NCBI GenBank assembly: GCA_050084515.1
Contig: CM114271.1
Span: forward strand, 18,414,001 to 18,478,000
Direction of reading: 5' to 3'
From: Blasia pusilla
Lineage: Eukaryota
DNA: 64,000 bases
Below, piece by piece: positions 12,611 to 48,673 of the stretch (positions within the stretch are counted from its first letter, which is position 1; every line of letters starts with the position of its first letter). The notes beneath the pieces are model-generated. The model made no database searches and was not told where the DNA came from. It worked only from the letters and a program-made list of their open reading frames with translations. The position numbers were made by a program, and so were the translations under genes.

Positions 12611-12689
12611 ATCAGCTACCCCATGGACCGTCCATGTGGCATGCCCATCTCAAAGAAGTTTTCGGCTAATCATACTCAACTTCTCAATT

Positions 12690-14280: not shown

Positions 14281-14289
14281 CCGTAGTCT

Positions 14290-17820: not shown

Positions 17821-17979
17821 CGAAACGTTGTTACTGAAATTGCATAATGGATAGGAAAGAGAAATGATCATAATCTAAGCCTTATACAATTTTTTAGCCG
17901 TTGAGCTGACCGTTGGATTTTGGGAACGGTTGGTCCAAGGGTGACGTCTGGCCGGTGAGGTGCTTGGCACGTGGGAACC

Positions 17980-18640: not shown

Positions 18641-18840
18641 CATGCCTTTCCCACTAGTCATCCACCAATATCTCCAAATATTCCTTTTTGGAAGGTCCAG
18701 TCACCTCGCGATGGTTCAACCTAACTACCAACTGCATGTCAGACATATTCTGTCAAAATTTAAACAGACACTGTTCACTATAAATTCAACATTCCCATTC
18801 TTATTCCTCTGTCTAGGCAATTATTCTCGGTCTCACCTAG

Positions 18841-23700: not shown

Positions 23701-24368
23701 CAAGCCAAAACATTCACTATTTTAGTATGACTAAACTCCTATAAGATTATAAACCTCTCATCTCCATACACACACACACCACACTCTAGAAACCTCTCGG
23801 AGAATAGACCATGCTCAAGTTACTCTCCCAAGAAGGTGATCCACTCTCATTGGAAGAAAAAACCATCCTAAAGCCATACACTCAAGAGTGACATGAGAGA
23901 CTCAAGATGTGCAATAGAAGGTGATGAACCCTTGAAGGTCCCTCCTCTTTACATACTCACAAGTAATCCACAAGAGTACAAAATAGAGCTAATCTTATCT
24001 TGTGCCACATGGCTTCCTCTCAAGGCTTATCCAATCACATTTTGACACGAGTAGATTTCCTCTTATCTCTTCCAAAATATCCTCTTTTATCCATTTGATA
24101 TTTTCCAAATTACCCCAACTAACCTAGCCACCAACCAAGCCTACTTTTTCTTTTCATTAAATCACCATCCTCACTACTTCACTTTATAAAGTTATCTTTT
24201 ATTTATTACCTCTTTTCTTAAAGTTGGGCCCGCATAAAAGAGGCACCATAAAGAGATTTAAACATGAGAATTTCCTTTTCCTGAGTTAATTTATTTAATA
24301 CTAATAAAACTCTATCTAACACTTAACGAGGAAGGATTTTACACACTGGCTGATTTTACTATATGACA
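20760..24368 (-). mobile_element. Truncated Gypsy element (5' LTR, gag, aspartic protease) inserted in the MULE-like element
   Basis: LTR at 23434-24368 and gag-like ORFs at 22648-22842, 22188-22430 and 21719-22054. Protease LVDHDSEIN...MILGQPYI at ~20925-21220. Confidence 0.75.
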
Positions 24369-24610
24369 CCGTCGGAATCCGACGGGTTGCTATTTTGGTC
24401 AGAAAAAAGTTCACCATGCAATACGCCTGAATCCGACGGTTTGCAATTTTTTCTGAAAATTTTTCATCGTCCAACCCGTCAGAATATGACGGGTTGTTAT
24501 TTTTTTTTGAAAAAATTTCACAATGCAACACGTCGGAATCCGACAGGTTGCAAGTTCCTTAAAGCAAGATAAATTAATCTTGCAACCCGTCCAATTTTGA
24601 CGGGTTGCAA
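24369..24610. repeat. Cluster 3 of the 27-bp palindrome
   Basis: ccgtcggaatccgacgggttgc at 24369, with further variants to 24608. One more copy lies at ~26302-26328. Confidence 0.85.
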
Positions 24611-26518: not shown

Positions 26519-26750
26519 GAAACTCTCTTAAAAAAAGTATCTCTTTGGGTTGAAGGTAGTTTCCTCTCTCCTCTCTCCTCTCTCCTCTCTCCTCTCTTCC
26601 TCTCCTCTTACCGCGCCTTTCCTGGAGACCAAAATAGGGTTCAAATCAGAGGAAACTCTCTTAAAAAAAAGTATCTCTTTGGGTTGAAGGTAGTTTCCTC
26701 TCTCCTCTCTTCCTATCCTCTTACCGCGCCTCTCTTGGAGACCAAAATAG
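26519..26750. repeat. Tandem duplication (~100-120 bp units) with CT-rich core
   Basis: ggaaactctcttaaaaaaagtatctctttgggttgaagg...ggagaccaaaatag occurs at ~26519 and ~26651. Confidence 0.85.
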
Positions 26751-26990
26751 TCTCCACACCTTGATCGCCGCCTCATGGAGAATGCAAACCTCGTGATAAT
26801 CATCCATGGGAGGGCCCTTAGGATGGGGAAAAGGTCCCTTCGAATCTCTGCCGGATTCGCATCCTTTGTGCATCACACCAACTATCAAACTCCTCCATAA
26901 AATCATCCAACTTGATGGTTCCTACCATGCTTGAGAACTATCAGGATCCCCTCATTGACCCATAGATATTGCGATCATCGATGTCCTACA
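26740..26990 (-). pseudogene. gag N-terminal fragment of the DNMT/PHD Gypsy family
   Basis: PPMDDYHEVCILHEAAIKVWRLFWSP matches PPMDDYMEFRSLYSVEIDAWRMYWAP at ~35905-35985. Confidence 0.7.
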
Positions 26991-28459: not shown

Positions 28460-29480
28460 GAGGCATCAAAACTTAAGTTTTGATAGCCCTTATGTCGAAA
28501 GGTGAAAGGAGGATCTTCTCACTCTATCGGAACTCAAGTTTTGATTCCCCTTGTTGGTGAATGTGGCTCAAGGCAAAGAAGAGGCTATGTGGTGTAGCTT
28601 TCCCTCGATCAGTAAGAGGTTGGAAAGTTTTGGGTGCCGCTAGTGTGGAGGAACTAGTGCCACTAGTTTGGATCCTTTATTGGAGTGTAGCTAGGACTGC
28701 TATCCATGGAGTTAGTGGAGTTGAGTGAGGTATGGAACTTACGTTCCAATTCAGGAAGAGCCCTCCCCTGAGGTAGTGGGAATTACTGCACGTGCCAGTT
28801 TCCCCGCATACGGCTCAAATGACAAAGAGGAAGTACAGGGCGCGGCACGACATGGCTCGGCAAGGACGACAAGGAGATGCAAAAGATATTTGGAACTCAG
28901 GTTCCAATTTGAGCATAGTTGAGCCAAGGCGTGGTTGCACTGCGTGTGGTCATCTCAACGGTGTAGGAGAGATTGGCACGGCTGGAGTGACAAGGAGGAT
29001 TTGGAACTCAAGTTCCAATTCTATCTCAATTGGAGAATAGTGGAGCATTTGAAGTGTAGTTGACTTCTATGGCGTGGCACAGGCGGCGTAGAATAGTGAA
29101 GTGAAGTGAGGAGGCAATTGGAACTTCAGTTCCAATTCCGCTCTTTACTTGTGGGTCTTCTCTACCAAGAGGAGGAGAGGATAGGAAGGAGGTAATCGAA
29201 ACTCTAGTTCCCATTCCGCTCCTCAGTTGTGTTGGGTTCTCTCTAGAGGGAGGGGGAGAGGATAGTGAAGGCAATCAAAACTCAAGTTTTGATCCTCTTT
29301 GCCGCAGCCCAAGACGTGAGGTCGAGATATTCTGCAGCATGATATTTAGAGGAAGGAGAGAAGAATTGAAACTCAAGTTCCGATTTCGCGGATTCTCAAT
29401 TGGGGCGCGGTTCTTCTTCAAGTGCGGTGATCGATAGGAAGGAGGAAGAATCAAAACTCTAGTTCCTATTCCGCGGCTTC
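28460..29480. repeat. Dispersed palindromic motif AATTGGAACT-NN-AGTTCCAATT (about 10 variants)
   Basis: Copies at ~28509, 28735, 28891, 29002, 29116, 29198, 29277, 29368 and 29453. Confidence 0.75.
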
Positions 29481-30098
29481 TTCAAGTGAGTGCGGCTCCT
29501 TCTATTAGGTGCAGAGGAGCGCGGTGTGTGAAATAGAGAGAGGGAGGAGTTAGCAATTGGAATTGGAGGCTTCAAGGCGAGAGAGGTGTTGAAGTACGAG
29601 TGGGTGTGAGAGGCGTGGAAGGTGCGAGGCGCCAACAAGCCAACTTTCTGGTGGCGTGAGGACTTGGCAAGCTGGTCGTGATCCTGTTCAAGATAACTTC
29701 CTAGTCACCAATCCCAGTTCTATTCCTCCAAAGTGTGCTTAATCGAAGAGTTCTTTTTCATGTTGTGTTACCAACACATCGACAAGGAGGTGATGCCTAG
29801 CTGTTGCACACTCGGGAATTTACTCGCTTACCTTGATGCTTATGGAGATTTTTGAGGGTAATTTTTGGGTGACACACATATTTTTAGTTCTTTTTTTAGT
29901 GCACGACACTACCGTGACTATTGTAGAGAACTTGGTAGGACGGATGTATACCACACTAGTCAAAATTGGCTTAGTGTGCAGGCTATTTTCCGTGTGTAGG
30001 CTATTTTCCAAGTGTTGATCTCAAGTGAGATAGGTGGGTGTGTGTCCATAGTTTGGGCATTTTCTAATGTAGAGCTAATGGCTCGGGAGTGAGTAATA

Positions 30099-30290
30099 TT
30101 AGTTTGCACGTTTCACGTTATATATAGTTGGGAGGATGCCCCAACTATATATAGTTGGGGCATATCCATTGTCTCCAAGGAACCCTAGTAAAAGGTGGTG
30201 CAAACATGCCATATGCCATCCTCTCAAACATCCATCACATACTAGCATAGCGATTGCACAACGGAACCACACAACATACATCGCAATCCT
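30099..30290 (-). pseudogene. Isolated PHD-finger fragment of the Gypsy family
   Basis: MLVCDGCLRGWHMACL matches the PHD at 41878-42015. Confidence 0.75.
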
Positions 30291-30469
30291 ACAAGAACTA
30301 CTGCTAAGCTCGGATCAACTGTACCGCGAATGTTCAGAAGATGACATGGATGACAAGAATGCAACTAACGATAGAGCCACCTCCAAGAGATAGAGCTTGA
30401 GAGCTCATTCTCTATTTGTAAATTGATCAAACCTCTCACAACAACAAAATCTCACATGGTGTGCATAGT

Positions 30470-30690
<221 letters not shown>

Positions 30691-30769
30691 CAAGAGAGAG
30701 AAAGAGAGCAAGGAGGACCATAGTTCCGCCGCCTCATGCGAAGAGGTTCAACAAAGAAAGAATAAGCTT

Positions 30770-31116
30770 TCAAGCTCTTTCTCTTCGATGTATACCCCCT
30801 TCCTTCTCCCAAGCCCTCTCCACAATAACCTATACTTGCAGGTCATCTCCTTGGCCCTTGACCTACTACAGCAGGTCAAGGGTCATATTTGACTTTCCAC
30901 TTCCCAAAGTGGAAAGTCAACTATACCAAAAATGGTATCTTACTCTAAATAGTAAGTTCCTCAATATGGCTCCAAATGAGCCGAAACGAAGGGGAAACCT
31001 ACTCTCTTAGGTTACTCGTGGCCTCAACAAGTCATCCTAGACCTCCTGAGTCTGTCCTTTGGTATCTTCAAAGGCACTCTACTAGATCTTGTCGATCTAT
31101 CCTAACAGACGTGACA
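30770..31116 (-). repeat. Block B copy of the 27.5 kb subfamily
   Basis: Reverse complement of 27463-27800; starts TGTCACGTCTGTTAGGATAGATC at 31116. Confidence 0.8.
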
Positions 31117-31473
31117 ACTCCCACATGGTCAAGATACACTAGCTTGGAGTTCTTGCAAACGCCACAACACCACAATTATGCTCCACACAAGAAATTGAGT
31201 CCCATTTTCTCTTCTATTGAGAACGAGTGTGCATCTTCTTGAGGATATAAAGTTGAATCCAAATTGTAAACTCTAAGGAAATGTGCAATCAACCGTGCTT
31301 CTTCCAAACAACCATATTCATAAATCGGATATACACTATTGCAACAGTAAGAGAAAGTGTACACAAGGACTCCCAAAATGTGTGTGATCTTACACTCCTA
31401 GCCCACTCTTCAAGAGAGAATCCAGGCTTAATACATGCAAGCTGCATTGTAAGACAGATTCCAACACAGTCTG

Positions 31474-32492
31474 GTATAGTAAAATCATCCACTCTGTAAA
31501 CTCCTCTCCCATTAAGTGTTAAAGAGAGTTTTACTAGTATTAAATAAATTAGCTTAGGAAAATAAATTTTACATGTTTAAACCTCTTCAGGGTGGCTCAT
31601 TTGTGCGAGCCCAACTTTAGAAAAAGAGGTAATAAATAAGACATGGGAGTATAAAAGTAAGTAGTAGGGTAGGTGTATTAATGAAAGAAAAGCAAAACTA
31701 GTCTTGGTTGGTGGCAAGGGTAGTCAGGGTAGTTTAGAAGATATGAAATAAGTTGATGAGGATATTTTGAAAGAGATAACGTATAATCTACTTGTGTCAA
31801 AATGGGATTGGCTAAGCCTTGAGAGGAAGACATGTGGCACAAGATAAGATTAGCCTTATTTTGTATTCTTGGCGATCCCTTGAGAATATATAAAGAGATG
31901 ATTTTTTTAAATGTTCATCATCTTCCACTTCATTTCTTTAGTCTCCCTTATTGCTCTTGAGTGGATGAAGCCCATCTTGGATATATGGAAATTGGCTTGT
32001 TTGGTCTTCCAACGAGTGTGGATTATCCATCTTGGATGGATGGAAATTAGCTTGTTTGGTCTCCCAATGAGTGTGGATTACCCATCTTGGGAGAATCACT
32101 TGGTTGAGTTCTATTCTTCGAGAGTTTCAAGAGTCTGATATGAAATGGTTATTAAGGGAGAGAAGTAGTCTTAGGGGAGTTTTATCATGGTAGGGATAGT
32201 AGATGGTTCTGGCTTGTTCTTTTTCCAATGAGAGTGGATCATCCTTCTTGGGATAGCAACTCCGCCAAAACTCATTCTTTAGGAGAGTAGAGGATGTCCG
32301 TTAAGTATGGATAGATGTGGAGCACGAGTCGTACATGATTTTCCTTTCCTTAATCCATATCACGTTTTCGTATAGTAAAATCACCCACTTTGCAAACTCC
32401 TCTCTCATTAAGTGTTAGTGAGAGTTTTATTAGTATTAAATAAATTGACTTAGAAAAATAATTTTTTCATGTTTAAACCTCTTTATGGTGCA
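31474..32492 (+). mobile_element. Decayed LTR of the second Gypsy family, with its start repeated in tandem
   Basis: Reverse complement of ~13460-14280. The gtatagtaaaatca...ctcctctc..attaagtgtt start occurs at 31474 and again at ~32370. Confidence 0.7.
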
Positions 32493-35400
32493 AAAGAGTG
32501 GGTTATCACACGCCGCTTCTACCGTTGTTGAGAAGGTCAAGAAGAAGGTAATATACCACATCCTAAAGTATGCTTTAATATGAACACTTTCACATACTTT
32601 TTCTCTCTCTCACTAAAACTCGTTTGGTGTAGATAAAGATAAGATTTATCATACTCATGCAAGCATTAGTGAGAAAGGCAAGTGACAGTTATAAATTCCC
32701 AAGGTGAATCTCTCTACCAATTCTTGTTTTCATTTTATGATATATTTATTTCATTTTTTCTTGCTGAAATATGGATACAAAAATTATGTAAACCTCGCTA
32801 AAAAGAAGTGGAGATTGTGAGAATAAGTTGCATAATTTATTATTGTACATCCTATTTGTTGTATAGGTGAAGCAATAATAGACATACATGTTCCACCAGA
32901 ACTGAAGAAGAAGGTTAAGATAGCCAACGAATTGGTTGGGAGTGTGGGTAGTATGTCAAAGTGTGATCTAAAAGTGCTGAACACCAAGAAGCAAAGGGTA
33001 AATATTAAAGCTTTGCTCCATTTGCAAGTAGAGTTTATGTGTTCTTTGTGGACATGTGACAACACTATGCATGCATGTGTGTTTCCTTTTTCATTTTCAT
33101 GTACCCAACTAGGTGAGGCTTGGGGGTTTGGGGTTTAGGACCATAAGCCTCACCCAACCAGGTGAGGCTTGTGGGCTTTTCAAGGAAGTTATCTATAGAT
33201 GGATGGAGCTTCACCAAGATAATGAATGTGGTTATAATAGTTAATCAACTATTGGAATGTTTTTATGGTGGCATTTAATCAATTATTTTGGATTGGCATG
33301 TGTAGTGATATTTGGGAGATGTGTATCCATGGGAAGGATATTGGTCTTGGATTGGTCAAGGTGGACCTAAAGGATACAATGTATTCTGACTACAACTATG
33401 GGAGCCGAACACAATGGATGAACATGCTCAACTCACACTAGGAGATGCGATAAGGACTTCTATCATTTGGCTAGAGTTAAATGAAAAAAAGCTTGCTTAT
33501 TAGATATTCTGATTTTGATAACTTTTCAGAGCTTTGGAGATGGCACAATGACTTCTTCAAGCCATTCTTTTATCTTATTTCCACAGTTTTCATTCAATCT
33601 CTATTTTGCTAATTTCCATATTGAGAAGATTGTGACTCTTATCTATAAGGACTCCTTAGGTTGGGATTTTATTGTACACAACGGAGCTATGAATCTACAT
33701 ATATGTCATCTTCACGATTGTGATTGTGTCACATCTGAGTAGCCGATAAGCCGAGATCTATCGTGGATAGGCGTAGGATCCAGCGGACTATCTTGAGTGT
33801 AACTTTGTCCCACAGTGTCGGATGAGGTTGAGGATAGATCCATTGTGTCAGGAACGTTGTTTCTGACAACTTTCATGTTGAGGTCTTTCACAGCCGGATG
33901 ACTTGTTGACCAGGTCACCCGCCCCTGGTAACCTGTGCGCGCAAATTACCAAGGGGAGGGCTATTTTTAGGGGAAGAGCCTTTTGGCTCTTCCCAACCCT
34001 ATATAAGAGAGGAAGATGGCTTTCTTAAGCCATCTTTCTCATGTTAGGCCCTTGGAGCACCTCCCTTGTATGTGTGTGAGATAGGACTAGGGTGCTAGCG
34101 TCCGGATTCCTTGACAGCACAGGGTGGACGAGGCTCGATATGCCGATGTAGATTGAGGAGTGGAGTTTTAGGCCAGGTGTGCTGTTCTTACTACTCTTTA
34201 TTTTTACATGAGAAAGATGGCAGGGGGCTAGTGGGAATTCGTTGTTTGCAGGAAGGCAAGCGAGTTGCCTTCGTCGAGAGCCCCTCGAGACGCGTGTGTT
34301 GCGGGTGTTTGTCATTTTTCTGTTTGGAAGGCCGTGGGCGGAAGCGCTGTCCTTTTTTCTTATATTTTTGTGGTGCAGATTGATGGGGACAAGAAAGAGG
34401 TGTAAGAGTTGCAGTTGCGGACGGGCAGTATAACATTGTCTACTAGCCGGAATGTCGGGATTTTGTAGGAAGGAGAGTTAGGGCTTGCAACCGCCGAGGG
34501 GCTCTGAAGTAAAGGGCGGCTAGGTCGTGAAGGCTAGGGTTAGGGCGACGAGCGTGTACGGGCGGCAGACGGGTGGTGACGAGCGGCAACGAGCGCTCAC
34601 GAGCGCGGGCAGGCGGCGACAGGCGCTGACGGGCGGCGACAGGCACGGACGGCGCGCGCGCCCCCTGCAGGTAGGCCACGGTGGTCGTGGGCCACCTCTC
34701 CTCCCGTTTAGGGCCAAGGTCCCAAGGTGCGGGCCAAGGTTCCCCCCATTTAGGTAACGTGGTGGCAGGGAGGATGTCGATGTGGTGAGTGACCGATATA
34801 GTTGGACAACGGACGTGGATGATGTTGAGCTACGTGGTTGAAAGTTCGGATGTGGTCGGGCAAGGCCGGATGTGGTCAGGGTCATGTTCACGTGGTCGGA
34901 CAGGGCGTACGTGGTAGGAGTGGAGCCCGACCAGGGTGTGTCAGGTTACATGCCGCGTGTGGGGATGGACGGAGAGGTTTGCATGGCATGATGTTTTTGG
35001 GGCGCGACACGGCATTGCGAGAGTTTACGATGGAGGGGCAGTGCGCATGATGCCGACGGGTTGTCTGCATCTGTTGACGGGAGGATCGACGTGTTGGTAA
35101 GAGGAGAGTGTTGTGTTGCGGAGGTTGTCATATCATATGGAGGAGTGCATGTTGACGGTGCAGCAGGTTGGAGGGCGTGATCACGTTACCCTTTTGAGTC
35201 CCTTTTCCCGCACTTGTCATGTGTGATTGAGAGTGTTGGGTATCGGGTAGTAGCTGGTGCTAGGTGGGTGCAGTGATGGTGACGAGTGTAGATTCTGTTC
35301 ATGTGTAGCATGTTGGTGGATATACGGCGGTTGTCGAGTAGGGGTCGCATGTATGACCCGAGAGAGTGTTGCTAGGTTAGATGAGTCAGTTGGGAGGCTC

Positions 35401-35739
35401 ACGGTGAGCCCGAGTGTTGAGTATGCGTGAGGCCGGGTGTGTCATCACGGGATTGAAGTTAGCATAGGTGAGCTAGTGAGGAGTGTGGAAGACTCTCGAT
35501 GAGTCTGAGTGCTTGAGCAGGTGAGACAGGGTTGTCATCACGGCATTCTTCCAGGGATCAGAAGAACGGGGTAGTGCGAGCAGTAGTAATGGTGTGACAC
35601 GGAGTGGAGTGAGATACCGAGGGGTTACCAGTGAGGAGCTACCTCGACATCCATCCGTGGCAGGATCGTCATCACTAGACATTGGGTCGGGTGACGAGAT
35701 CGCAGACAGAGACAGTAGTACTTGGCAGGAGATGGACAA

Positions 35740-37320
35740 CATGGGCCATCGGGGCATGCGTCGTTTCTTGGGTGCAGTGGGCACCATAGACTAAGATGAT
35801 TTTATCTAGGAGTTCGACACGTGGTGCGACTTCCAGGAGATACCGACCCCGACGCGGTTCAACCCTTTCATGTCATGGAAGGGGTTGTTCCAGCACTTGG
35901 AGGATCCTCCGATGGATGACTACATGGAGTTTCGATCACTATATTCAGTAGAGATTGATGCCTGGAGGATGTATTGGGCTCCAGTGTATGTGTCCACTAG
36001 TGGTCGCGAGGCATATGATGGGATTGTGAGAGGAGGGAGACCCACACCATGAGCCCGAAGACTAGATGGAGAGGAGGGCAGTGACACAGGCGATGTGGCA
36101 GAGACCTCTAGTGGTAGAGGGCAACCCAGCTTCAGCCCCACAGTGGAGTTCTTCCGACAGTTGGGGAAGAGCTACCAGGGCGTACGCACCGACAAGCTGA
36201 AGAGTCTGCAGGATTTTCAGCGACGATCGGGTGAGAGTCTGAGACAGGAATTCACATGCATGAGGAGGCTGATTATTGCTACGTTTGGAGTGACTGAGAC
36301 GCAGTCACTGTAGTATTGGTAGGGGGTTCTGGATCAAGAACTACGGAGGAGAGTCCAAGATGAGGTGCTGATTCACACAACGAAGCCCACATTGAAGGTG
36401 GTCTTTGAGTTTTCTGAGCGTATTGAGCTCAACATGAGTGAGGAGCAAGTAGTGACCGCTGGATTTCTCGAGAGTCGACGGGTCCACGAGCGACGGTCAC
36501 CCCACAGGTGCCACAGCAATCACTAGTACCACGGGAGCGGGCCAGTGTGCCCACAGAGCAGGGCGGGTATCGTGAGCCTATGAGGCAACAACCCGTACCT
36601 ATATATGTTGCCCAGCAGGGAACGATGTGGTCTTGTTGGACGTGTGGAGGGGCCCCTAGGCATAGAGACTGCCCACAGCATGGGAGAGGACCACTAGTGC
36701 CTTTGATTGCTCAGGAGCCATAGAGGATGGCCCCACCACAGATATGGTCATACTAGGGATAGATGTTTTGACCTTCGCCGAGGGGCACGTCCAGAGGTAG
36801 GCCGAGAGCATGGGGGCGGTCGTCCTGCAGGAGGTCGGGGAGTTCTTCCTGGACGTGGTGGTAGAGGACCACCACCAGCCATAGGAGATGGAGTAGGAGC
36901 ACCAGAGCCGGCACTTCTCTGCCTAGAGAGCAGGGCGGGTACCGTGAGCCTATGAGGCAACGACCCGCACCTACATATGTTGCCCAATAGGGACCGACGT
37001 GGTCTTGTTGGACGTTTGGAGGGGCCCATAGGCAGAGAGACTGCCCATAGCATGGGAGAGGACCACCAACGCCTCTGATTGCTCAGGAGCCACAAAGGAT
37101 GGCCCCACCACAGCACCAGTGTGACCATTGCCACAGATATGGTCACACTAGGGATAGATGTTTTGACCTTCGCCGAGGGGCACGTCGTCGGAGGTAGGCC
37201 GAGGCCTGGGCGTCGTCTGCGGGCAGAGGTCGGGAGTTCTTCCTGGACGTGGTGGTAGAGGACCACCACTAGCCAGAGGAGATGGAGGAGGAGCACCAGA
37301 GCCGGCACTTCTCTCACGCA
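35740..37320 (+). pseudogene. gag with zinc knuckles
   Basis: LKSLQDFQRRSGESLRQEF is a retrotransposon gag motif. Knuckle-like motifs CWTCGG...HRDCP and CDHCHRYGHTRDRC are present. There are many stops. Confidence 0.8.
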
Positions 37321-37718
37321 TCGATCAGTTGGAGTAGAGGATTGTTGCCATGACGATGATGCAGCTTAGGGAAGGCACGCAGCTGCGAGCAGCTAGTGTG
37401 ACTCCAGCTTCTACCTCTTACCCTGACCCGGGTGAGGATCTTGCTAGTATGGGATTTATGTGTAGTGCAGCCCAGGTTGAGGCAGTTGCAGTGGTGACTC
37501 AGGGTGTTGCAAGAGGCACCGAGCCATCGAGAGGTGGAGTTGAGATTGACCCACCAGAGGGGACCGATGGGCAGCAGGCCAGGGTTCCATAGCCATTCAC
37601 ATTGTCAGAGGCACTACACACACCATCGATGGTGCCTCGACGACCAGCAGTGCCTACAGCTCAGGCACCTATGTCGACGTCACGAGGAGTTGGAGTGACA
37701 ACTCCTATGCCGGCTTGA

Positions 37719-38440
37719 GTGGAGTTAGTGTCAACCATAGTGTTGGAGGTGGCCACCAGAGTGAGTCAGACTCCACTATTTTCCGCCATAGAGTTGGCGA
37801 CGTTGGGAGTTGGACCAGCTGAGGTGTTCTGGTTGGCCGCCACGTTGGGTGAGCATGGAGAGATGACTGCTTCTTGTTCAGAGGAAGTTGAGGAGGTGGT
37901 GGACTTGCCCTCAAAGCCCGTGCTCGGGATGTTCCCCACCGAGTTATGGCATGCGGCGGCGACGAAGTTGGTAGATAGGCCAGCTCGAACGGCCATAGAG
38001 CGAGCAGTGGTGATACTTGGAGTAGTGTTATTGGATAACCGAGCTGGAGTATTTTTCTTGGTTAGTCCGACAGGGACAGTATACCACCCGCAGCGCGTCC
38101 TATTTGCCTCGGGAGCGCAACCCTTGATGTTAGGGAAGGCGGCGTGTTTAGCGTCGGGGTTACGGAAGGCCGACATTAAGCCTTGTCCCTTCCAGATACG
38201 GACCTCGATTGGGGGCGTGTCACCCACGTTGTATATGACTCGACAAGAGATAGTTGTCAGAGTCCAGCCAGAGCATGAGACGGATAGTGCTATGGTGCGC
38301 ACATGTGCGATTACGACACTTGTTGAGTCGTACCATGTGTTGGTGGGGAGTACAGTGTTATATCCCCTAGGATTCATCCTTGACTTCTAGGAGGAGACCG
38401 TTGCTTATCGGCCAGAATGGCAGTCAGGTGACGGCCCGAT
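37719..38440 (+). pseudogene. Retropepsin-type aspartic protease (catalytic Asp lost)
   Basis: RVLFASGAQPLMLG corresponds to the usual LLDSGA motif; VLVGSTVL is the second motif. Confidence 0.7.
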
Positions 38441-38820
38441 GAGTTAGCTACCCGTGCAATTTGCACGACAAGGTGGTCGATCACGAGGCGAGTCTGTGAC
38501 CACGTTGGCGGCTTTCACAGGTAGTGTTAGTTGGCCAGGAGAGTTGTTGGAGGGGAACGCACATGCGGAGATTGTCCCAGTAGCGGATAGTCCCACGGAG
38601 AGACAGGCCATGGCGGGTGTCTCTTCCCATGTTGGCAAGACCTCTTCACCATTGTGGGGTACGACTCGAGAGCTACAGAGGAGTGTCGACGACCTCGTGA
38701 GGCAGGCATGGAGTCATGCTTTGATCTTGAAGCAGCGAGAGTCACGTGGCAATCGGGCTCTTGGCGTGGAGACATTGACTGGATACCACACCCATTGTGT
38801 GGCAGTGCCCAGAGGAGGGT

Positions 38821-39700
38821 GTTAGGGTGTTAGATCTCTTTGGAGGGATTAGCACCGGATTGGCGGGCATACGGGTGCATCAGTACCTTTATGTGGAGAG
38901 AGATGAGACCGCGCTGCGAGTATCATTACGTCACTTGGCGAGATTGGTCCAGAGGTATCTTGAGTTGTTGCCGGTATCTGCAGTACGGGGATATCAGCAT
39001 ACACTACCCGCCAACATCTCTTTGGTGGGGGCGCAGGATCTTGATAGAGTTGGCACCATTCATTTGGTGATTGCTAGATGGCCATGTTAGGGTCATTCAT
39101 CAAGCTGGTCGAGGATTTTGATTGCGGGATCCGAAGTCAAGAATTTTTTGGGAGATGTTGCGAGTAGTACGACACTTGCAGGAGAGTCAGACATGTTCTC
39201 TAACGTACATCTTGGAGAACGTGCCGTTGTTGGAAGACACTCGTGCACGTGTGATGACAAGTGTGTATCAGGTGAGGTCCTGGTTGGGACCTGCTGTGTT
39301 ATTAGATGCGGTGAGAGTTGGATCACGTGCATACGATGGAGTCCATAGAGCACCACATCTCACAGTGGATGCTATTTTGGACTCAGGGCGTCGATCTCAG
39401 GTGGTGACATGGGATGATAGACCACCGTTGGCCATGGCCAATAAGGTGGGGGAGTTGAGGGCAGCCTTACCTACGTTGGTGAGCTTCCCAGCATCCCATG
39501 CCTTTTGTCACAGAGGGCCAGGCATGATTTGGGATGAGGTGACCGGAGCATTGGAGGAGCCTACAGCAGATGAGCACGAGCGCGCCATGGGGTTCGCTAC
39601 TGGTACTACGGCGGTGCCAGGGATGATTGAGGCATCCCGGAGACAAGTATTGGGGAAGGCGATGGACCTTAACTCTCTCACATGGAAAGTCAACCTACGT
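38821..39700 (+). pseudogene. C5 DNA cytosine methyltransferase domain (DNMT3-like), copy 1
   Basis: Motif I VRVLDLFGGISTGL, motif II YLYVE, motif IV HLVIARWPC*GHS, motif VI YILENVP, motif IX EHERAMGF and motif X RRQVLGKAMD occur in canonical order. Confidence 0.92.
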
Positions 39701-40089
39701 ATGGCTGAGCAGAGACGGATGCGAGTGTCATCCATGCCGTCACGTCCACGAGTTGGACCATTGCCTATAGGGTTTGTACATGCATTGGTTGGGGGCAAGA
39801 CGAGGAGAGATAGGCATCCATGGACTTCCATGGACGTTGTTCGAGCAGAGAGTGCGAAGGCGGCTCGGATAGCACATATTCATTTTTTGGATGCGGAGCA
39901 TGGTGTAGGAGGTCAGAGTGGAGTGGTTGTTGCGGAGGTGGCTAGGGTTGCTACATAGCAACCAAAGCCGGAGGTTGCGTCCTCTCCGAGTGAGGTCACG
40001 ATGGAGACTTGGGAGCCTATGATAGGTCTCAAGTTGATAGGAGGAGAGCGACGGCGAGTTCATAGGTTTTTGATAGGGCATGTCAATTT

Positions 40090-40795
40090 TTTTCCTTCAG
40101 TATGAGAGACTTGGGTACACTAAAGGGTCCCGGGATACGGATTGAGTTGGCTAGTGATACGCCGATCTTTCGTCGACCCTACAGGTATTCTGATATGGAG
40201 CGAGCCTTGATTCAGAGCAGGAGTTAGGACTTGTTGGAGGCAGGACTTGTGGAGTTATGACATGGGGAGTATGCATTTGCCACAGTCATGCCGGCAAAGA
40301 AGGATATGTATGGCAATTGGACGGATAGGCGGATGTGTGGAGATTACCGTCCTATCAACCAACAGACGAGGTCAGATCGATACGCCATGCCTACTCCTGA
40401 GGAGATCTTTGATGGGGTAGGGCATGCAAAGATCTTCAGTACTTTAGATCTCCGTGCTGGCTATCATCAGCTTCCTATCAGGTTGGAGGACAGGGAGAAG
40501 ACAGCATTCTAGGGGATAGATCGGTTCGGGAGAGATTGCTTGTATCAGTGGAGGTTCTTACCATTTGGATTGAAGAACACGCCTGCAGAGTTTCAGAGAG
40601 TGATGGATAGGATTCTGGCTGGCTTGGATTTTGTACGATGTTACATAAATGATATTCTTATCTTCGGTTCCACGGTTGAGGAGCATGAGCGACAGTTGGA
40701 GGAGATGTTTCGGCGATTGCAGTTACATGGACTGAAGTTACATCCAGGCAAGTGCAGATTCTTTCAGGAGCAGATTGAGTACTTGGGACACACCA
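40090..40795 (+). pseudogene. Gypsy reverse transcriptase
   Basis: RMCGDYRPIN, FSTLDLRAGYHQ, LPFGLKNTPAEFQR, YINDILIF (YxDD changed to YIND) and KCRF...YLGH. Confidence 0.95.
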
Positions 40796-40977
40796 TGGTT
40801 GAACGCCTAACCTATACATAGGTTAATACTGGGATAAATTGAGATACACGTGTGTCCCGTCTGCTGAACGCCTAACCTATACACAGGTAATGACTCAAGT
40901 GGTGGGGTTGGATGATGAGTCTTTCGATCCGGAGGTTAGTGAGGAGGCGACATGTGGTCGTGATATCCATGACGACA

Positions 40978-42018
40978 TGGGACTTTGCGGGACCTTTGCC
41001 ATTGACGGGGCATCATCATAGGTACGTGTTGGTCATGGTGGAGCATTTCTCCAAGTGGATAGATTTGGTGGCACTACCAGACAAGGCGAGCGAGGGAACA
41101 GCTAATGCATTTCTAGATCATGTGCTTATTCACTTTGGTGCACCGACGGAGGTGTTGACTGACCAGGGTACTGAGTTCAGGGGAGGGTTTCAGGCCTTGT
41201 GTGATCAGGCGCTGATAGATCATCGCACCACGTCCAGAGATCATCCTGAGGCGGATGGGTTGGCACATAGAGTGGTACAGACGGTGAAGAGAGGATTGCG
41301 CAAGTATGGCTTGCAGCGGGGACACTTGAGGGAGTGGGACCTACAGTTGCCATGGTTGGCTATGGGTTATCGCTTAAGGCAGCAGGCATCCTTGGCGTCA
41401 GTTTCACTGTACTTTTTGCTCTTTGGGAGAGAGCCAGATGCACCTGCAGCGATTCGACGTGACATGGCGGAGATGTTAGATCTTGATGATCCAGATGTTT
41501 TGGTACAAGCATGTTCTCAGAGGGCAGAAGTTTTTCATAGAGTTATGCCTATGGCCTTTGAGAACTTAGCTATTGCCCAGCATAGAGATACATTGAAGTA
41601 CACGACCATTCGTGGAGGAGGTTATCGTCCAGGGATTAGGAGGTTTCATCCTGGAGATTACGCGTATTTACAGCAGGCGGCACCCACGACGCTAGATGTC
41701 ACTACAGAGCGCATGATCCTACGTGTGCGCGAGGTATTACCGACCGGAGTCCTCATGTTGGAGGGATGGGATGGGATGGTTTGGAAGGATCATGTGCGCA
41801 ATTGTGCGCCATGTCATCTTCCGAACGTAGATGTGACGGTGGATCCGAGCTTGGCAGTGGTACCTGCAAGCTTGAGGTGTATGTTGTGCGGATCTGCGAG
41901 GGGTGCAGCCACCATGTTGGTATGTGATGGTTGTTCTCGAGGGTGGCATATGTCATGTCTGACCCCCCCTCTTGATGTGGTTCCCACGGGACGATGGATG
42001 TGTCCGAGATGTGTATAG
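40978..42018 (+). pseudogene. Integrase core plus C-terminal PHD finger
   Basis: DFAGPLP, VEHFSKW, LTDQGTEF, HPEADGLAHR (usual E lost) and LLFGREP. A C4HC3 PHD lies at 41878-42015. Confidence 0.93.
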
Positions 42019-42649
42019 GGTAGTAGGTCATGTCAGAGAGATGTGATATTTTCTATCTGGAGTTGGGGGGATCCAACTACCAGCTAGGGGGGCGGTTGTG
42101 TGATCTCCATATATATGTATGAGTTGATTTTTGTACATGTGTGGATCGACCCGTGTGTGGGGAAGATTGGTGTTATGTGGTGTAGATGTGACCAGCAATG
42201 TATGTTGTGTAGCGATATGTATGCGCACGACAATTGTGACTATTGCATCCTGAACGTCTCACTCACTCTCTGTTGTTGGGAGATTTTAGAGTCAACAAAG
42301 ACTAATATAACTAGAATGTAATATGCTGCAATAATAAAACGTCAATATTATGATGAAAAAAATAATAACTTACAATAATTATAGTGTGAGTTCTTTTCAA
42401 TAGAACTAACTTAGTCATTTATATGACTAAGCCAATCCAGAAAATAACCAAATTAGTAATTGCATGTGACTCATCCAATCGTTAATATAACTAGTGCAGT
42501 GACCATTATACCAATACAGTCATTTAAATAACTCATGTCTCTACTCATTTGTAATAACTGAGCTAGTTATTTATGATAATGAGCAATGACACAACCAGTC
42601 GCAACTTGACTCATATAGTCATTTTGAATGACTCTATAAGTTGGATTCA

Positions 42650-42822
42650 TAGTACCCATAGCAAACCCCATGGCGTGCTCACGCTCATCAGGAGTAGGCT
42701 CGTTCCAAGGCTCGGGTTTCCTCATCCCATTTCATGGGTACTCCTTCTTGACGAAAAGCATGGGATGTTGGGAAGCTCACCAATGTAGGTAAGGTTGCCC
42801 TCAACTCCTCCACCCTATTAGC
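42650..42822 (-). pseudogene. Third fragment of the retrotransposon DNMT (motif IX region)
   Basis: ANRVEELRATLPTLVSFPTSHAF...ERERAMGFAMGT matches 39436-39610. Confidence 0.8.
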
Positions 42823-43019
42823 TATCGTCTTCGGTGTAGGGTTGAACACAGACAAAGTCCGTCTCCGTAGACATATGCATGTCCATGTCCGCGGACTTAT
42901 GCCCCTCCCTAGGACGAACATGTCTGTGCAGGCTCGGGAACCCGCAGCCCGCACCCGAGACAGCCCCCAAAACCTTCCAAGCCCATAGTAGGCACTCGGG
43001 TTGGCCGAACCCGCACCGG

Positions 43020-43270
43020 TTTTGTGGCCCTCAATAGATCATTCACAAGCTCATCACCATCGTCTCCTTTGTGATTCACAAGTTCTTTCATCGCTGCTCC
43101 CACCTCAACCAAGGAGAACGAATCGTTATATGGGTTACCCAACTCAACCTCATCATCTACCTTCTCCCGTTGTATCTTAACAAACTCTCTCGAAGTTCTC
43201 CTCTTCAAGCGATGTCCGAGGGGACTTCTTGCCTAACTCCTTGTAATTGTCTTCCAACACATGTCAGATC
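43020..43270 (-). pseudogene. Possible LINE ORF2 fragment
   Basis: FSLVEVGAAMKELVNHKGDDGDEL resembles the pre-RT ITxxEVxxAxxxLxxxKAxGxDG motif of non-LTR elements. Confidence 0.45.
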
Positions 43271-46034
43271 TGTTTAGCAGTGGTCACCATTCCACCGTCT
43301 TTTATCTTCAGGGCCTTTACGTCATTTTTGTCCTGGCCTTGTTCAATTTCTGCACTTCCATCCATACTTTTTTCTAATTCTCATTGAAATTGTCATTGAT
43401 GGATGAGTATGTCGCTTGGTTCAATTTCTTCTTGTGCGCAAGCGACATATTCTGCCCACAAAGATGCATTGTCCTTGGCCATGGCACATGCCACATAAGC
43501 TTCCCTTCGTTTGGCAATGGCTGCCTTGAGTTCCAAGGTCCACCATTGGACGCTTCTGCTGCATATTATCAATTTCCTTCCAACAACAATCTCGGCGGCA
43601 TCTGTCATTCCATGCCCCCACCATGCCATCACCACGAGAGAAAGAGATTGATTGAATGAATGAATTCCTAATGTAACAAGATTATTCATTTTCATGGTTG
43701 CTCTTTAAGAGAACTTTATGATGAAATTTTTGTATAAGACGTCATAGAAGAATCCAAAATTTGGCCGTAAATTTATATCTACGTTTATTCTACAGAAATA
43801 TGATTCATTAATGTCATATAATATTCCAAATATTCCAAAATGTGGGAATGTGCAAAGTTGAAATCCCAATATCTATATTATTATGGGAGAGTGCTTTCTT
43901 GATTTGCAAACACCTTTCTAATTGACATGTGGCAAGCGAGCAACAAGAAATTATTTTTCCTTATACGGAAAGCAAGAAAATATTTCCATTCTATTGGCAA
44001 AATAAAATAAATTCCTGCCAACAAGATTAGTACCTTCACTCTTATGCATGGCACATGTTGTCCACTGGTATACTCTTCCTTCGACAACGTCTTCTTCATT
44101 AGAAAGCTTTCTACAACTTGTGTGGATGGAAAGAACATGGAGGTGAGAAACACCTTTTCCACATCATTGTATTCATGCATCCATAGCCCTTGGAGATTGA
44201 AGAGACATCCCAAATAGGGTGGGTGAATACTCCATTGTGTCTCTACGGTAGGCGAAGTATTCACCCACCCTCCATGGTATTGTGTACGGCGAGGCTTACT
44301 ATCTTGAACGAGAGAGAAGGGATTGAGTTAGCAAACGCTTGCACGAAGAGGGCGTGGGAAGTGCTTTCCAGATAGTGTAGCAAGCCGTGAGGGTATGATG
44401 GCACATCTTGCAGGAGTTGAAAGATGAAAGGATGTTAGAATCTAGAAATCTGGTTGATGGGACCAACAAAAAACCACTCTAACCAGACGGAAGACAAGAA
44501 GAGAAGAGAGTTCTGGAGCCGATCACAACAGGCGTCTCCAACAAACTTCTGAATTCGACACATAGTCATTGTTCGCACTAGATCGAAAACGAAAGGTGAA
44601 TGATGGATGCACTCGCCACGCAGCCATTGGCGGATATCGTTGAATACGAGGGTTGGAGCTTCATGACTGTCAGCTGCAATACTGAGATCCGGTAGAGTTG
44701 TAAGTTGCTCTTAGGGGCTCTGTGAGGCAGTTTGGTTTCTGCTCAGTGATCGAAAGTGGCACCTTACCTGTACGTTCAGAAAAGAAAAGGAGCGTAGTGA
44801 GAAACTGTAGATTCATAGTCCAGGAATTGAAAGTACTATTAGGGGTAGTTCTTTCCTCCTTGAATGCTCCATTAGAAGTCAGAAACACGCTCCAGTCAAC
44901 ACATTACACGTTAGTGAGAAACTGTGAGTTTCAGTTCGGGAATTGAAGGTACAGTTAGGTCTATATCTTTCCCGCGTCGATGCACCAATTATAAGTCGAG
45001 TGAGGAAAAGATGCAAGTCAACACGTCAGTGCACGCTGCGCAGGAGCTCACCCCTTCGATTTTCCTGATGTGAAAGGATCCTGTCAGCTCCTTTACCATC
45101 CAGTGCAGTCACGGGGCCGGGCTTATCAGGGTACATCCTGGACGACCTAGTAACATGTCATAGTAAGGAAAGAAACGGGAACAGTATATTCAAAGGTCCA
45201 AGATCCGTCTAGGGAACCGCCGCGGTGATGTTGTACCGAATACTGACTGCATCGCGCCCAGCCACGAACTTGAATGACACTGGTTTCCCCCATGGACCAA
45301 CTTCCAGAGACAATCGTGGAGCGATGGACAGAATGACTGACTGAGTTTCGCTCTGCGCAGCGCACAGCGCACAGGAGCACCTAAAATAGCGTACAACGAT
45401 AAGATGACCAGCGGAGTTACGTCAACAGATTTCCAGGCGTTAAGTCAACCTGCCGCGGTCTGGCAAGAAAGTAGTTATCTGGTCAAGCTTGCGAAGGGAT
45501 AAGCGCCAGCATGGACACCGGAATGATTCCTTACAGCAGCATCCATGTGCGTTAGTCAATGAAGAGGGCCAGAGAAATCTTTTCCAACCTGGAAACCCAG
45601 TGACCCCAGACAGAACCGTAGTTACTAGCTCTGCAGGAGGAAGTGGAGGGGCTGCGCTGACGAACGGACTGATGTATCAGACATAAGGTTTTTGTTCCTC
45701 CCAAGATGCAGCCACTGTACTGTTCGGATGCAGGGGAGCGAGCGAGCAGCACGAACATGGCAGTGTAGTCGTCCGGAGTGGCGCTACCGACAAGGCGAAT
45801 AAGTCAAACCTGCGATGCATTTTCCTCTACGAAGAACGCAGTGCGCGTCGCGCACTGCGAGACGGAGATCAGCCACAGAGTTCGTACCTACAAGAACTAA
45901 TACAGGGCTCATTTCCGGCCCAAGTAAATTACAAAGAGTAATAAAGAAAGTTTCGGGAGACTGGAACAGCCGTGTTTGCAACGAACGCAGGACGAAAATG
46001 ATCACGTCAGATGAACCAGCATGAGAATGGATGG

Positions 46035-48673
46035 TTACAAAGGGACCTCTCGTATTTCCAATTCCAAATCGGTTGTATTATCATCCAAATTTACCGTGTC
46101 CAATTCCATGGTGGTTCTCTCTGTATGCATGGGAAGAACCACCAGTTCTGCTCTATGTAGCTCCTGTAACTGGTAGAGTACGTGCGACATCCGGGGTCGC
46201 ATTGAGGGCACATGCTGCGTGCATGTGTAGGCCAGCTCCACCACCTTCTTCACCTGTGAGTAATTTGGAACGGTTCCTATGAAAATGTCTAAGAGTTCTG
46301 TCCATGCTTCCGCCTGGAACAATGGTGTAGCCCATTCGAAAATCGTCGGAGTCTCTGAAGACTCCCCCTCAGCTGCTACAGTGGGCTTACGCCCCGTAAC
46401 TAGCTCCAAAAGCAAAACGCCGAAACTGAAAATGTCGCTCCTGGTGGTGAGTTCATTGCGATATACAAACTCCGGAGCCAAGTAACCATGGGTTCCAACA
46501 ATCACAGTTGGCTCGTGGGTCGCCTCACGTAAAGCCATATTGACAAGCCCCACACCTACGAGGTGGGGATTAAATTGGTTGTCTAAGAGAATCGCACTAG
46601 CTCGCACATTCCGGTGCACCACATTAGGCTTCACTTTGTCGTGTAAGTACCTGTTAGCCAGCAACACCCGCACACGCTTAGAACGGACACGCGGCCTTCT
46701 GATCTAAGTTTTCAAGCTGGCGTAGGCGGCACCTGAATGCTCAGAAACCCTAAGCAGCTGACAGGCAGGGCTCAAGTCGAAGAGGGTAGAAAGACAAAAC
46801 GCCAAGCTCAGATATGGAGACAATCAGGAAGCCGTACAAGAGAAATCCACAAGAGGAGAGGAGAGGAGAGCGGAGGCGCAGCTCTTCGAACGTAAAAACG
46901 AAGTCAGGAGGGCGGGAAACACTCACGCTAGACTATGCGCAACACCGGTAGCAATTTGCATACGCGTGTCCCAATCGAGGGGGCGTGCGCCACTGGGCAA
47001 ATCATGAAGCCATTTTTCCAAGGACCCATTCGATATGAATTCATATACTATGTAGCCCTCGCCGCGATAAAAGCAGCAGCCCTTCATAGCTACCAAGTTC
47101 TCGTGCCTCAAACGTCCAATCTTCCTCATCTCGGCCATGAAATCCTTCTCCCCCTGAACTCCAGATCTCCTTACTTTCCTAATCGCCACGGGAGAGCCAC
47201 CCGGCAGGATACCCTTGAAAGTATTACTATCTTCTGCAGCTCCAAGTTTGTTCTCCAGCGAGAAACCGTCTGTGAAGGCCTCTAATTCCGCGTATGAGTA
47301 CACTCTCCAGAGAGGAGTTAACGGTGTGGTCGCCAGGAACGTGCGATCTCGCCTGCGCCGGCGCCTTCTCTTCGTCCGTCTGTAGGCGAGAAGCCATATC
47401 GTAACTCCTAAAGTTGTCGTTAGAATGACAGAGCTGACCACCGACAGTATGATGATATACTCCTTGTGCGATGACCTGCTCTCACATGACTCGCCTGGAG
47501 CCAAGCGCACGGCTTTAGTAGGTGGGTATAACAAAGTCAATACAGTTACGGAGGGTTATACGAAAACGAAAATTAAGTGGCAAAATTCTGCAGTCCATAG
47601 TCGGGTGGGACCACAGGGGTTTTCTTCGGGGCAGACTGAAGGAGCAAATTTTAGGTGTCTACCCACAACACGTGCATGCAAAAATCCAGGAAAAGCCCAC
47701 AAAAGCCCACCACTGCTGCACATAATCGGATTGATACAAGGAAACCGCCAAGACTTGAGAAATTGAAGCTGGAATTTTATGCCTCCTGAGTGGGACGAGT
47801 ATTATGTGGGATCTAACCTTGGTCGAGACTACAAATAAGAGGATGCCCGGTATCACAGCTCTCCCAAACGAGCGAAGCATTCACAAGCAGCGCACACCAC
47901 CTGACGTTACTGTAGCCAGGGCAGCTCAGATCCGAGCAATTGCTTTGAGGTGCCACTAGTGGAGGGAAAAGTGATCCGTTCCATCGCACGTGACAGTCAA
48001 TCCAATTTGGCTGGAGATAACCGCTACTAGATCCTTGTGCCGATGCTCCTAACCAGCAACCTCCTGGTCCACTGCTATCGCAGAGCGCTTCGAGAAACTG
48101 AACCTCGGTCGTCGACGCGACAGAAGCTAGATGACCACCCTCCGCCGTGCAAGTGTTTTCGGACTCGTTCCAAGTGCTGAAGGTGTTCATCAAGGTGAAA
48201 CAGCGTTGTTCAACCGGTCCGTCTTGCCAGCCACTCGGGCAATGGCCTGCAGATTCCCAACGCACCCCCAATCAATGGTTTCCTTCTCCTTTTCCATCTG
48301 TGCCAAGGGAGGCACCGCTTTGTGCTCCTGTTTGCAAGATATGTTCTCCCTGAGACACAGACGTAAGCTACCTCGATATAAATCGGAAGTAGAACTAACA
48401 TCAATGTGCAGCCATACGCAATACGCTGAACGCCTAAGTTCATTGCTTCTCAGAGTGCGTGTTGGGTGAAAAGTTCACCCGGACGAATGCACTTTGCTCG
48501 GTAACCTCCGTAGAAGTCGAGAGAAAATATTAGTAGGGAAAACTGGAAGCAGGCCAACCTTACGCTAAGAAGATGCGGAGCACGTGCTTACCACATTGAA
48601 TTGTACTGAGACAGCTCAAAATGCACAAGACCACCAGCTCGTACTTTAGTGTGCACCACAAGCATACCCTCAT
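46035..48673 (-). CDS. C-type lectin receptor-like kinase (At1g52310-like), about 564 aa, 4 coding exons
   Basis: Exons 48673-48592 (signal peptide), 48246-47818 (CTLD: CPSGW, WNESENTC, HLAS, WLG), 47494-46927 (TM, basic stretch, kinase N-lobe) and 46650-46035 (GTHGYLAPE, SDIFSFG). All introns are GT-AG and phase-compatible. The first exon is the least certain. Confidence 0.9.

Follow-up and report, generated by a model that had tools for sequence, protein, structure and literature searches.

A DNMT3-like cytosine methyltransferase as a probable regular part of a Gypsy-type retrotransposon family in bryophytes

Why would a transposon carry an enzyme of silencing? Cytosine methylation is the main means by which plants silence transposons. 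It is therefore paradoxical that selection should preserve a de novo methyltransferase in a transposon; such cases have been documented before only in dinoflagellates and one charophyte alga, and with no agreed function (PMC5890265). The question is raised by a 64,000-nucleotide stretch of Blasia pusilla DNA (assembly GCA_050084515.1, contig CM114271.1, positions 18,414,001 to 18,478,000 of the forward strand; below, the window, with coordinates counted from its first letter). An earlier note, made from the letters alone, had seen in it a DNMT3-like cytosine methyltransferase within broken Gypsy retrotransposon copies. We conclude, with a probability of roughly 85%, that the copies in the window are decayed members of a bryophyte Ty3/Gypsy-type family in which a DNMT3-like cytosine-5 DNA methyltransferase (DNMT) is a regular coding part. 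The family order is repeat A1, Gag (CCHC), protease (PR) and DNMT, an in-frame TAG, then reverse transcriptase (RT), ribonuclease H (RNase H) and integrase (IN) with a PHD finger, and finally repeats B1, A2 and B2. The Gag-PR-DNMT open reading frame (ORF) with its candidate leaky stop, the split repeats flanked by target-site duplications and a second domain order in related elements are the anatomy added by this analysis.

Copy 1 occupies positions 33727-42232 on the plus strand. By tblastn with the Marchantia proteins P0001 and P0011, its gag, PR, DNMT, RT and IN-PHD were found at 35732-42018 (+), with DNMT between PR and RT as had been claimed. The ORF1 remnant, Gag (CCHC)-PR-DNMT, covers 35732-39955 (+) and matches residues 1-1246 of P0001 in three frames. 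Within it, motifs and tblastn place the DNMT domain at 38779-39700 (+), in the frames 38779-39090 and 39122-39958 (+). Motif I is VLDLFGGISTGL; it is followed by ARWPC, a stop and GHS (motif IV), ILENVP (VI), ERAMGF (IX), RRQVLGKAMD (X) and the linker HPWTS. The claim that the motifs occur in order inside pol thus held for their order, motifs I, IV, VI, IX and X being read one after another. As to pol it needs to be made more precise, for DNMT does not lie in a continuous pol: ORF1 reads Gag-PR-DNMT, with DNMT at its C-terminal end, and closes at a conserved stop before RT. The domain of copy 1 is broken by the stop at 39088-39090 in motif IV, by a frameshift between 39091 and 39122, and by the loss of about 19 codons (motif VIII) near 39325-39334. 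Downstream, RT lies at 40010-40818 (+) with a frameshift near 40075-40093 (Pfam RVT_1, E 6.9e-21; tblastn to P0011 residues 696-919), and 40894-42018 (+) holds the integrase core (about 40975-41247; Pfam rve, 5e-11) and the C-terminal PHD finger (about 41878-42012; PHD, 4.2e-11). The integrase match begins only in the core, and no tblastn match to the RNase H residues 920-1190 of P0011 was found in copy 1. The CCHC region of its gag contains a tandem duplication of about 372-394 bp, with 36548-36920 and 36920-37314 (+) being 85% identical.

A second copy has the same domain in the same place. Copy 2a (9111-12582, minus strand; tblastn and self-comparison) is truncated at its 5' end inside DNMT. 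tblastn recovered DNMT, RT, RNase H and the start of IN at 12582-10414 (-), so that the domain stands directly upstream of RT as the earlier note had it, and self-comparison extended IN-PHD to 9111. Along the minus strand we assigned DNMT to 12582-11546, the boundary TAG CAA CTA to 11512-11504, RT-RNase H to 11509-10797 and IN-PHD to 10779-9122. The DNMT of this copy carries 10 stops and one frameshift. It retains AGWPCEGHS and AHRPQLWWTNL, the latter falling in the region deleted from copy 1, which agrees with what had been read from the letters; in motif IV copy 2 reads PCE, and copy 1 has its stop after PC. With X at its three stops, the piece at 12271-12582 (VAGWPCEGHS...ILENV) matched the Pfam DNA methylase family PF00145 with 27.2 bits (E 3.4e-6), above the cut-off of 22. 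A third DNMT fragment, also noticed before near 42650, was recovered by tblastn at 42651-42861 (-); it is inverted and 80% identical in DNA to 39423-39608 of copy 1. All these copies are broken, as the earlier note stated, by stops, frameshifts, deletion and truncation in copies 1 and 2; they are dead and without function now.

Intact relatives were found in land plants, Marchantia Mp4g09160 being one example with an unbroken natural domain. A 278-residue fragment of copy 1 gave 18 longer protein matches, the best being Marchantia polymorpha gene models (58% identity, E 3e-81), then Calypogeia fissa and two species of Sphagnum; at this identity and E-value, the likeness of the domain is not due to chance. 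Searching with the Marchantia domain brought up 58 proteins. PF00145 was passed by six of seven relatives (27.7-46.1 bits against the cut-off of 22), by four of five others and by two of two more, at 24.7-46.1 bits overall, and a comparison with a protein atlas again gave PF00145, with Streptophyta the commonest taxon of the top cluster. Marchantia P0001 is a continuous Gag(CCHC)-PR-DNMT protein of 1278 residues, and in P0011 DNMT is followed by RT and RNase H. A scan of metagenomes gave at least 352 confirmed stretches among at least 600 pattern matches, of which the best 80 were kept as loci. One of them, L028, holds a seemingly intact element of a sister clade (976-8226, +), with no terminal repeats or LTR (long terminal repeat) pair found on its 9.3-kb contig. 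The domain is thus a trait of the family, as proposed: it keeps the frame in uninterrupted natural ORFs (P0001 and ORF1 of L028), and named liverworts and mosses have intact relatives of it. No separate insertion bounded by its own target-site duplication was seen. The proposed embryophyte lineage is likewise borne out by the named relatives in M. polymorpha, Calypogeia and Sphagnum and by the liverwort host.

The remaining domains place the family in Ty3/Gypsy. It has Gag with CCHC and an aspartic protease, followed by RT, RNase H and a DDE integrase (rve, H2C2); the protease was recognised by a DSG motif and one sub-threshold Pfam match. Against PDB sequences, the best solved relative of a family profile built from 35 proteins was Ty3 Gag-Pol (E 2e-96). 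A profile search with the integrase columns gave 86493 matches at E of at most 0.001 and 1328 at 1e-30 or below, numbers that include IN-only or PHD-only matches and are no count of DNMT-bearing elements; the best 150 were mostly DNMT-IN-PHD proteins.

We then asked which methyltransferase the domain resembles. In family alignments, motifs I, IV (PC), VI (ENV), VIII, IX and X and the catalytic cysteine stand in the standard order, not rearranged, unlike DRM. At least 90% invariant over 35 sequences are the motif I glycine, Cys-Gln of PCQ, Glu-Asn of ENV, and the histidine and arginine of the HRxR motif (VIII). The best methyltransferase for the family profile among PDB sequences was DNMT3A (E 8e-21), followed by DNMT3C and DNMT3B. 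The relative P0062, which has DNMT only, gave the same order (DNMT3A, 1.6e-7, then 3C and 3B), followed by M.HaeIII (6.8e-6), tobacco DRM (5.4e-5), M.HhaI (3.8e-4) and DNMT2 (1.7), the margin of DNMT3A over M.HaeIII being small for this single sequence; no DNMT1 or CMT was among the 50 sequences listed. The AlphaFold 2 (AF2) model of P0062 has a pLDDT of 76.2, high over residues 20-388. In a Foldseek comparison with the PDB, only DNMT3A, DNMT3B and DNMT3C appeared among the 32 matches listed down to rank 50, with E down to 8e-17, TM scores of 0.79-0.83 on catalytic-domain chains and 19-21% identity. E-value and predicted-fold ranking therefore support a cytosine-5 methyltransferase of DNMT3 type, in line with the DNMT3-like motifs noticed at the outset. 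The animal DNMT3A/3B/3C catalytic domains share the motif order and a similar motif VIII (AHR.R..W.NL); they differ in that the family domain lacks PWWP and ADD and belongs to the polyprotein of a retrotransposon. In a quick tree of 60 DNMT domains (a short search, without bootstrap, of element domains only), both window copies stood in a 15-row clade with Marchantia, Calypogeia and Sphagnum proteins (SH-aLRT 100).

The stop between DNMT and RT is placed alike in several copies. In copy 1 it reads TAG CAA CCA at 39956-39964 (+), the frame running on into RT, and in copy 2a the RT frame starts right after its TAG CAA CTA. Both lie exactly at the ORF boundary and make up two of the three TAGCARYYA sites in the window, where about 3.5 such sites would be expected anywhere by chance. 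In L028, ORF1 (1369 residues, Gag-PR-DNMT) and ORF2 (1047 residues, RT-RNase H-IN-PHD) share one frame with a single TAG CAG TTA between them; L033 also has TAG CAG TTA, and L071 has TAG CAA CTA. At these five boundaries UAG-CAR-YYA is followed by an in-frame downstream ORF, the sequence arrangement of type I readthrough. A group of 14 loci has, at one fixed place, TAG or TAA CAA CCC or a close variant, matching five of the six downstream bases; L027 (CCT) and L048 (TAG TAA CCC) depart further. Marchantia P0001 and P0005 end about 32 residues past the last aligned DNMT residue, and the window ORF about 36. In tobamoviruses and other plant viruses, UAG-CAR-YYA is the consensus described for stops that are read through efficiently (PMC3542737). 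The same nine bases would here, too, separate a shorter product from an extended one, and again the host is a plant; the difference is that the family signal stands in a retrotransposon between Gag-PR-DNMT and RT-RNase H-IN. On this likeness, the conserved stop is moderately likely to be leaky. Gag-PR-DNMT would then be the main product and Gag-PR-DNMT-RT-RNase H-IN-PHD a minor product made by readthrough.

The ends of the element were read from mapped reads, which, in RNA and DNA alike, join 42232 to 33727 and 34205 to 42095. These joints mark out two repeats, A (33727-34205) and B (42095-42232), which adjoin each other as B-A and as A-B in other copies. In copy 1, A1 (33727-34205, +) is the left terminal repeat. 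It begins TGTCAC, contains a TATA box within 33997-34012 (the TATA pattern occurs once in the window), and is homologous to a repeat downstream of copy 2b at 5943-6295. B1 (42095-42232, +) ends CACGACA and is preceded by the G-run GCTAGGGGGGC; A2 and B2 are missing at the 3' end of copy 1. At the 3' ends of copies 2a (8939-8084) and 2b (6506-5798), B1-A2-B2 is visible directly. On the minus strand of copy 2a, B1 is at 8939-8823, followed by the bases AC, A2 at about 8820-8201 and B2 at 8200-8084, which ends CACGACA; the 117-bp direct repeat has 85% identity. Copy 2b (5798-8018, minus strand; tblastn and self-comparison) consists of the 3' part only, with IN-PHD, B1 at 6506-6371, AG, A2 at about 6368-5913 and B2 at 5912-5798.

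The full layout A1-coding-B1-A2-B2 was present in five metagenome elements (L045, L049, L065, L079 and L080), none of which had a B after A1. They start TGTCAT and end CACGACA, giving TG...CA ends, and a G-run precedes B1 and two bases link B1 to A2. Target-site duplications of 4 bp were perfect in three of the five (GGTC, CCAA and ATAA), had one mismatch in another and were absent in the last. These ends and duplications show that the related elements enter the genome by a DDE integrase. Two identical long terminal repeats were not found in these five elements or in window copies 2a and 2b, all of which have split repeats instead. The target duplications border A1 on its left and B2 on its right, and for this reason the standard LTR model, with the polypurine tract before B1 and an LTR equal to B plus A, was rejected for the integrated element. 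At the A-to-B junction (the 34205/42095 joint), copies vary by 1-11 extra letters, while at the B-to-A junction all copies read have a spacer of two bases. As speculation, the split ends could be regenerated if a circle with two repeats were cut at either of the B-A junctions in it, which the variable A-B letters would fit. Just upstream of A1, 33600-33726 (+) has a weak likeness to repeat B, ending CACGA...TTGTGATTG; it was seen by alignment only and not found by blastn. Copy 1 may once have stood behind another B, in tandem or by recombination.

The layout resembles that of the DIRS order (Ngaro/PAT type), described as A1-coding-B1-A2-B2 (PMC5890265). DIRS elements have a tyrosine recombinase, whereas the bryophyte family has a DDE integrase (rve, H2C2), TG...CA ends and 4-bp duplications. 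PHD fingers as accessory polyprotein domains are also in print for the Chlamydomonas Gypsy elements Gypsy-7a_cRei and REM1, whose descriptions, in the accessible parts of these sources, mention no DNMT (PMC9940879, PMC6673714).

We next considered whether the DNMT domain is kept by selection. The ratio of nonsynonymous to synonymous divergence (dN/dS) was calculated pairwise by NG86. Between copies 1 and 2 it was 0.35 for DNMT (252 codons, dN 0.41, dS 1.17) and 0.16 for RT, the latter on 49 shared codons only. Among the loci, 74 copies had at least 250 DNMT codons mapped, four of them without a stop in the domain. An ORF of at least 500 residues was present in just 4 of the 80 loci, so most locus copies are decayed too. 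For deep locus pairs (dS 1.5-4), whose saturated dS makes the ratios rough, the median was 0.195 for DNMT (180 pairs), 0.183 for RT (35) and 0.353 for PR (121). The ratios, well below 1, suggest that DNMT behaves like RT and unlike neutral DNA, with purifying selection about as strong as on RT; the neutral ratio that would have spoken against the earlier note was not seen. In young pairs (dS 0.02-0.2) the values were 0.56 for DNMT, 0.41 for RT and 0.77 for PR, as expected with neutral post-insertion decay mixed in.

Reads offered a further view of the family in its host. Along copy 1, word depth in DNA run X1 was 5,900-19,900 in DNMT bins, 7,100-15,300 in PR bins and 28,900-44,000 in RT bins; the depths are similar within a few-fold, a weak hint that most family copies in the X1 genome carry the domain. 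The stretch 34206-35154, in which the bins had a depth of 0-1232 compared with about 10^4-10^5 in adjoining bins of the same run, has nearly no family depth and is private to copy 1, an insertion or a replacement. In three RNA-seq runs with the same species label, 643, 701 and 711 reads matched copy 1 at 90% likeness or more over the whole element, with a depth of about 1-6 in DNMT bins. The first mate was nearly always on the minus strand. If the library is of the usual stranded kind, the host makes sense (+) RNA from members of the family. Only 9, 5 and 7 reads were at least 99% alike to copy 1, so the RNA comes from relatives of copy 1.

In this liverwort the family is abundant, and members of it are transcribed. 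If the stop is leaky, DNMT would be produced as plentifully as Gag and enter the particle with it, where it could methylate the element's own new DNA before or at integration, so that each new copy would arrive with the host's repeat mark or a self mark. The PHD finger on the integrase would read histone tails and choose the insertion site. We favour such self-methylation by a particle-borne, active enzyme because the catalytic residues are conserved, the domain appears to be under selection and it is placed in the Gag-PR frame. From these sequence features, methylation of the element's own newly made DNA is our most likely role for the enzyme, held tentatively and at somewhat less than even odds. 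The wider picture comes close to an even chance: a single old Gypsy lineage, reaching from chlorophytes to liverworts and mosses, with a PHD-bearing DDE integrase, split repeats with 4-bp target duplications and a DNMT3-like enzyme, whose bryophyte branch would have moved DNMT into the Gag-PR frame ahead of a leaky stop, to be made in capsid amounts, packaged and used for self-methylation.

Several observations weigh against parts of this account. Neither of the two raw DNMT fragments of copy 1 matched PF00145, nor did they with X at the stop; we rejected this as an argument against the domain, because the frameshift divides the part that Pfam matches in relatives. The 14-locus group ends in CCC or CCT and not in YYA, TAG CTC stands in six loci, and in seven loci from a more distant group DNMT runs on to RT without a stop. 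The loci were retrieved by DNMT patterns, so the share of family members without the domain is not readable from them. In the young pairs DNMT has the higher ratio beside RT, and the deep ratios are rough, as said. Expression rests on mapped raw reads only, most of which are just 90-95% alike to copy 1 (504, 549 and 566 in the three runs), and the sense strand depends on the assumed library type. Finally, the CpG loss of the elements (observed/expected ratio 0.47-0.67) is no greater than that of other non-genic parts of the window (0.42-0.63) and so carries no specific signal.

Purifying selection and conserved catalytic residues would fit any catalytic role, and the enzyme might be kept for one other than self-methylation: marking chromatin at or around the insertion, adjusting how far the element itself is silenced and so making it tolerable to the host, or interfering with host methylation. 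The PHD finger carried by the integrase suggests that the element interacts with chromatin, and several such roles are listed as open by the authors who described the algal elements (PMC5890265). Placement in the Gag-PR ORF favours a particle-borne protein over a free nuclear enzyme, an argument from position only, and we regard these other roles as unlikely, though they carry real weight.

The domain might also no longer methylate DNA at all, serving as a DNA- or RNA-binding or scaffolding module like animal DNMT3L, or acting on RNA. In the one assay published for a DNMT3 carried by a Gypsy element, the Dnmt3 domain of the algal element KnitGypsy-Dnmt3 gave no de novo methylation in yeast, which counts against our proposal as well; its authors call the result inconclusive, human DNMT3B having failed likewise (PMC5890265). 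Moreover, EC or SC replaces PC in motif IV of some relatives that have DNMT after RNase H (P0016, P0037, P0047 and P0041). The catalytic cysteine, ENV, the arginine-rich motif VIII and the motif I glycines are nevertheless nearly invariant over the 35 sequences, and the AF2 model matches active DNMT3 catalytic domains over their whole length. A non-catalytic or RNA-directed role therefore appears improbable to us.

A different question is whether the bryophyte elements captured a host DNMT3 independently of the algal ones. DNMT-bearing retrotransposons have been published from Symbiodinium and Klebsormidium, the dinoflagellate and charophyte precedents that the earlier note had correctly named, and repeated independent captures are documented (PMC5890265). 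The position of DNMT also differs. In the bryophyte family it lies after PR, ahead of RT; in the 3225-residue chlorophyte Gypsy polyprotein P0101, 'pol' of Scenedesmus sp. PABB004, and in many relatives, unnamed metagenome proteins included, it lies between RNase H and IN, in the order RT-RNase H-DNMT-IN-PHD. The bryophyte-type P0062, however, is 41% identical to the DNMT of the Scenedesmus pol (355 residues, E 6e-64), far closer than to DNMT3A/B at 19-21%, and both groups share the integrase with a C-terminal PHD finger. The A-coding-B-A-B layout, too, is that described for KnitGypsy-Dnmt3 (PMC5890265), and a single capture, with a later change of place inside the polyprotein, makes the simpler history. 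Independent capture thus seems quite improbable, and the sequences suggest instead one DNMT lineage travelling with a PHD-integrase Gypsy lineage across green plants in two polyprotein positions. For chlorophytes, no publication on Gypsy elements with a DNMT turned up in the literature searched.

Chance juxtaposition, a host DNMT3 pseudogene or separate insertion lying inside one retrotransposon copy, finds nothing for it but the copy 1 fragments below the Pfam threshold and is refuted by the same domain at the same place in two diverged window copies, by its presence in frame in natural ORFs of several species, and by the 74 mapped locus copies.

As a kind, then, the element is already known from KnitGypsy-Dnmt3 of Klebsormidium nitens (de Mendoza et al. 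2018), which we compared by its published description only. Like the bryophyte family, it is described as having a non-rearranged DNMT3-type domain in a Gypsy-type coding region, purifying selection (Ka/Ks below 0.2, compared with about 0.2-0.35 here) and DIRS-like A-coding-B-A-B repeats with Gypsy-type domains (PMC5890265). Its host is a charophyte alga, whereas the present family is in land plants (the liverwort host, Marchantia, Calypogeia and Sphagnum); a Gag-PR-DNMT ORF set off by a stop, a PHD finger and 4-bp target duplications are features described for the bryophyte family. No K. nitens protein was among the 18 and 58 matches of the two domain searches. For land plants, we found no report of DNMT-bearing retrotransposons in the open-access literature, including by six Marchantia gene ids.

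Marchantia polymorpha is transformable and gene-editable and has published methylomes. If the proposed self-methylation is right, the question why a transposon carries a silencing enzyme becomes testable in this genetic model plant with near-intact copies, the handles being the natural Gag-PR-DNMT ORF, the candidate leaky stop, the PHD-integrase and the defined ends. P0005 (Marchantia Mp_8g17980) and P0015 (Sphagnum) are retrotransposon ORFs that bear the database name 'DNA (cytosine-5-)-methyltransferase', and models so named, P0005 for example, can inflate the counts of host DNMT3 genes in bryophytes.

Two isolated fragments of the family lie elsewhere in the window: a gag fragment at 26736-26970 (-), matched by tblastn to P0001 residues 3-86, and a PHD-end fragment at 30142-30349 (-), found by self-blastn as an inverted match to 41809-42018 with 71% identity. 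A repeat family unrelated to the DNMT element is present at 13009-14284 and 23089-24372 (89% identity over 1.3 kb), also at 31466-32491, with further copies at 71-84%. The window also contains a host gene for a C-type-lectin receptor-like kinase of the At1g52310 type, with kinase and Lectin_C exons at 46035-48268 (-). Its kinase exon is 88% identical to that of Marchantia paleacea, from which the host is a liverwort near that species, though apparently a different one, with 72% identity to Calypogeia fissa and 51-64% to the other listed matches, land plants where named.

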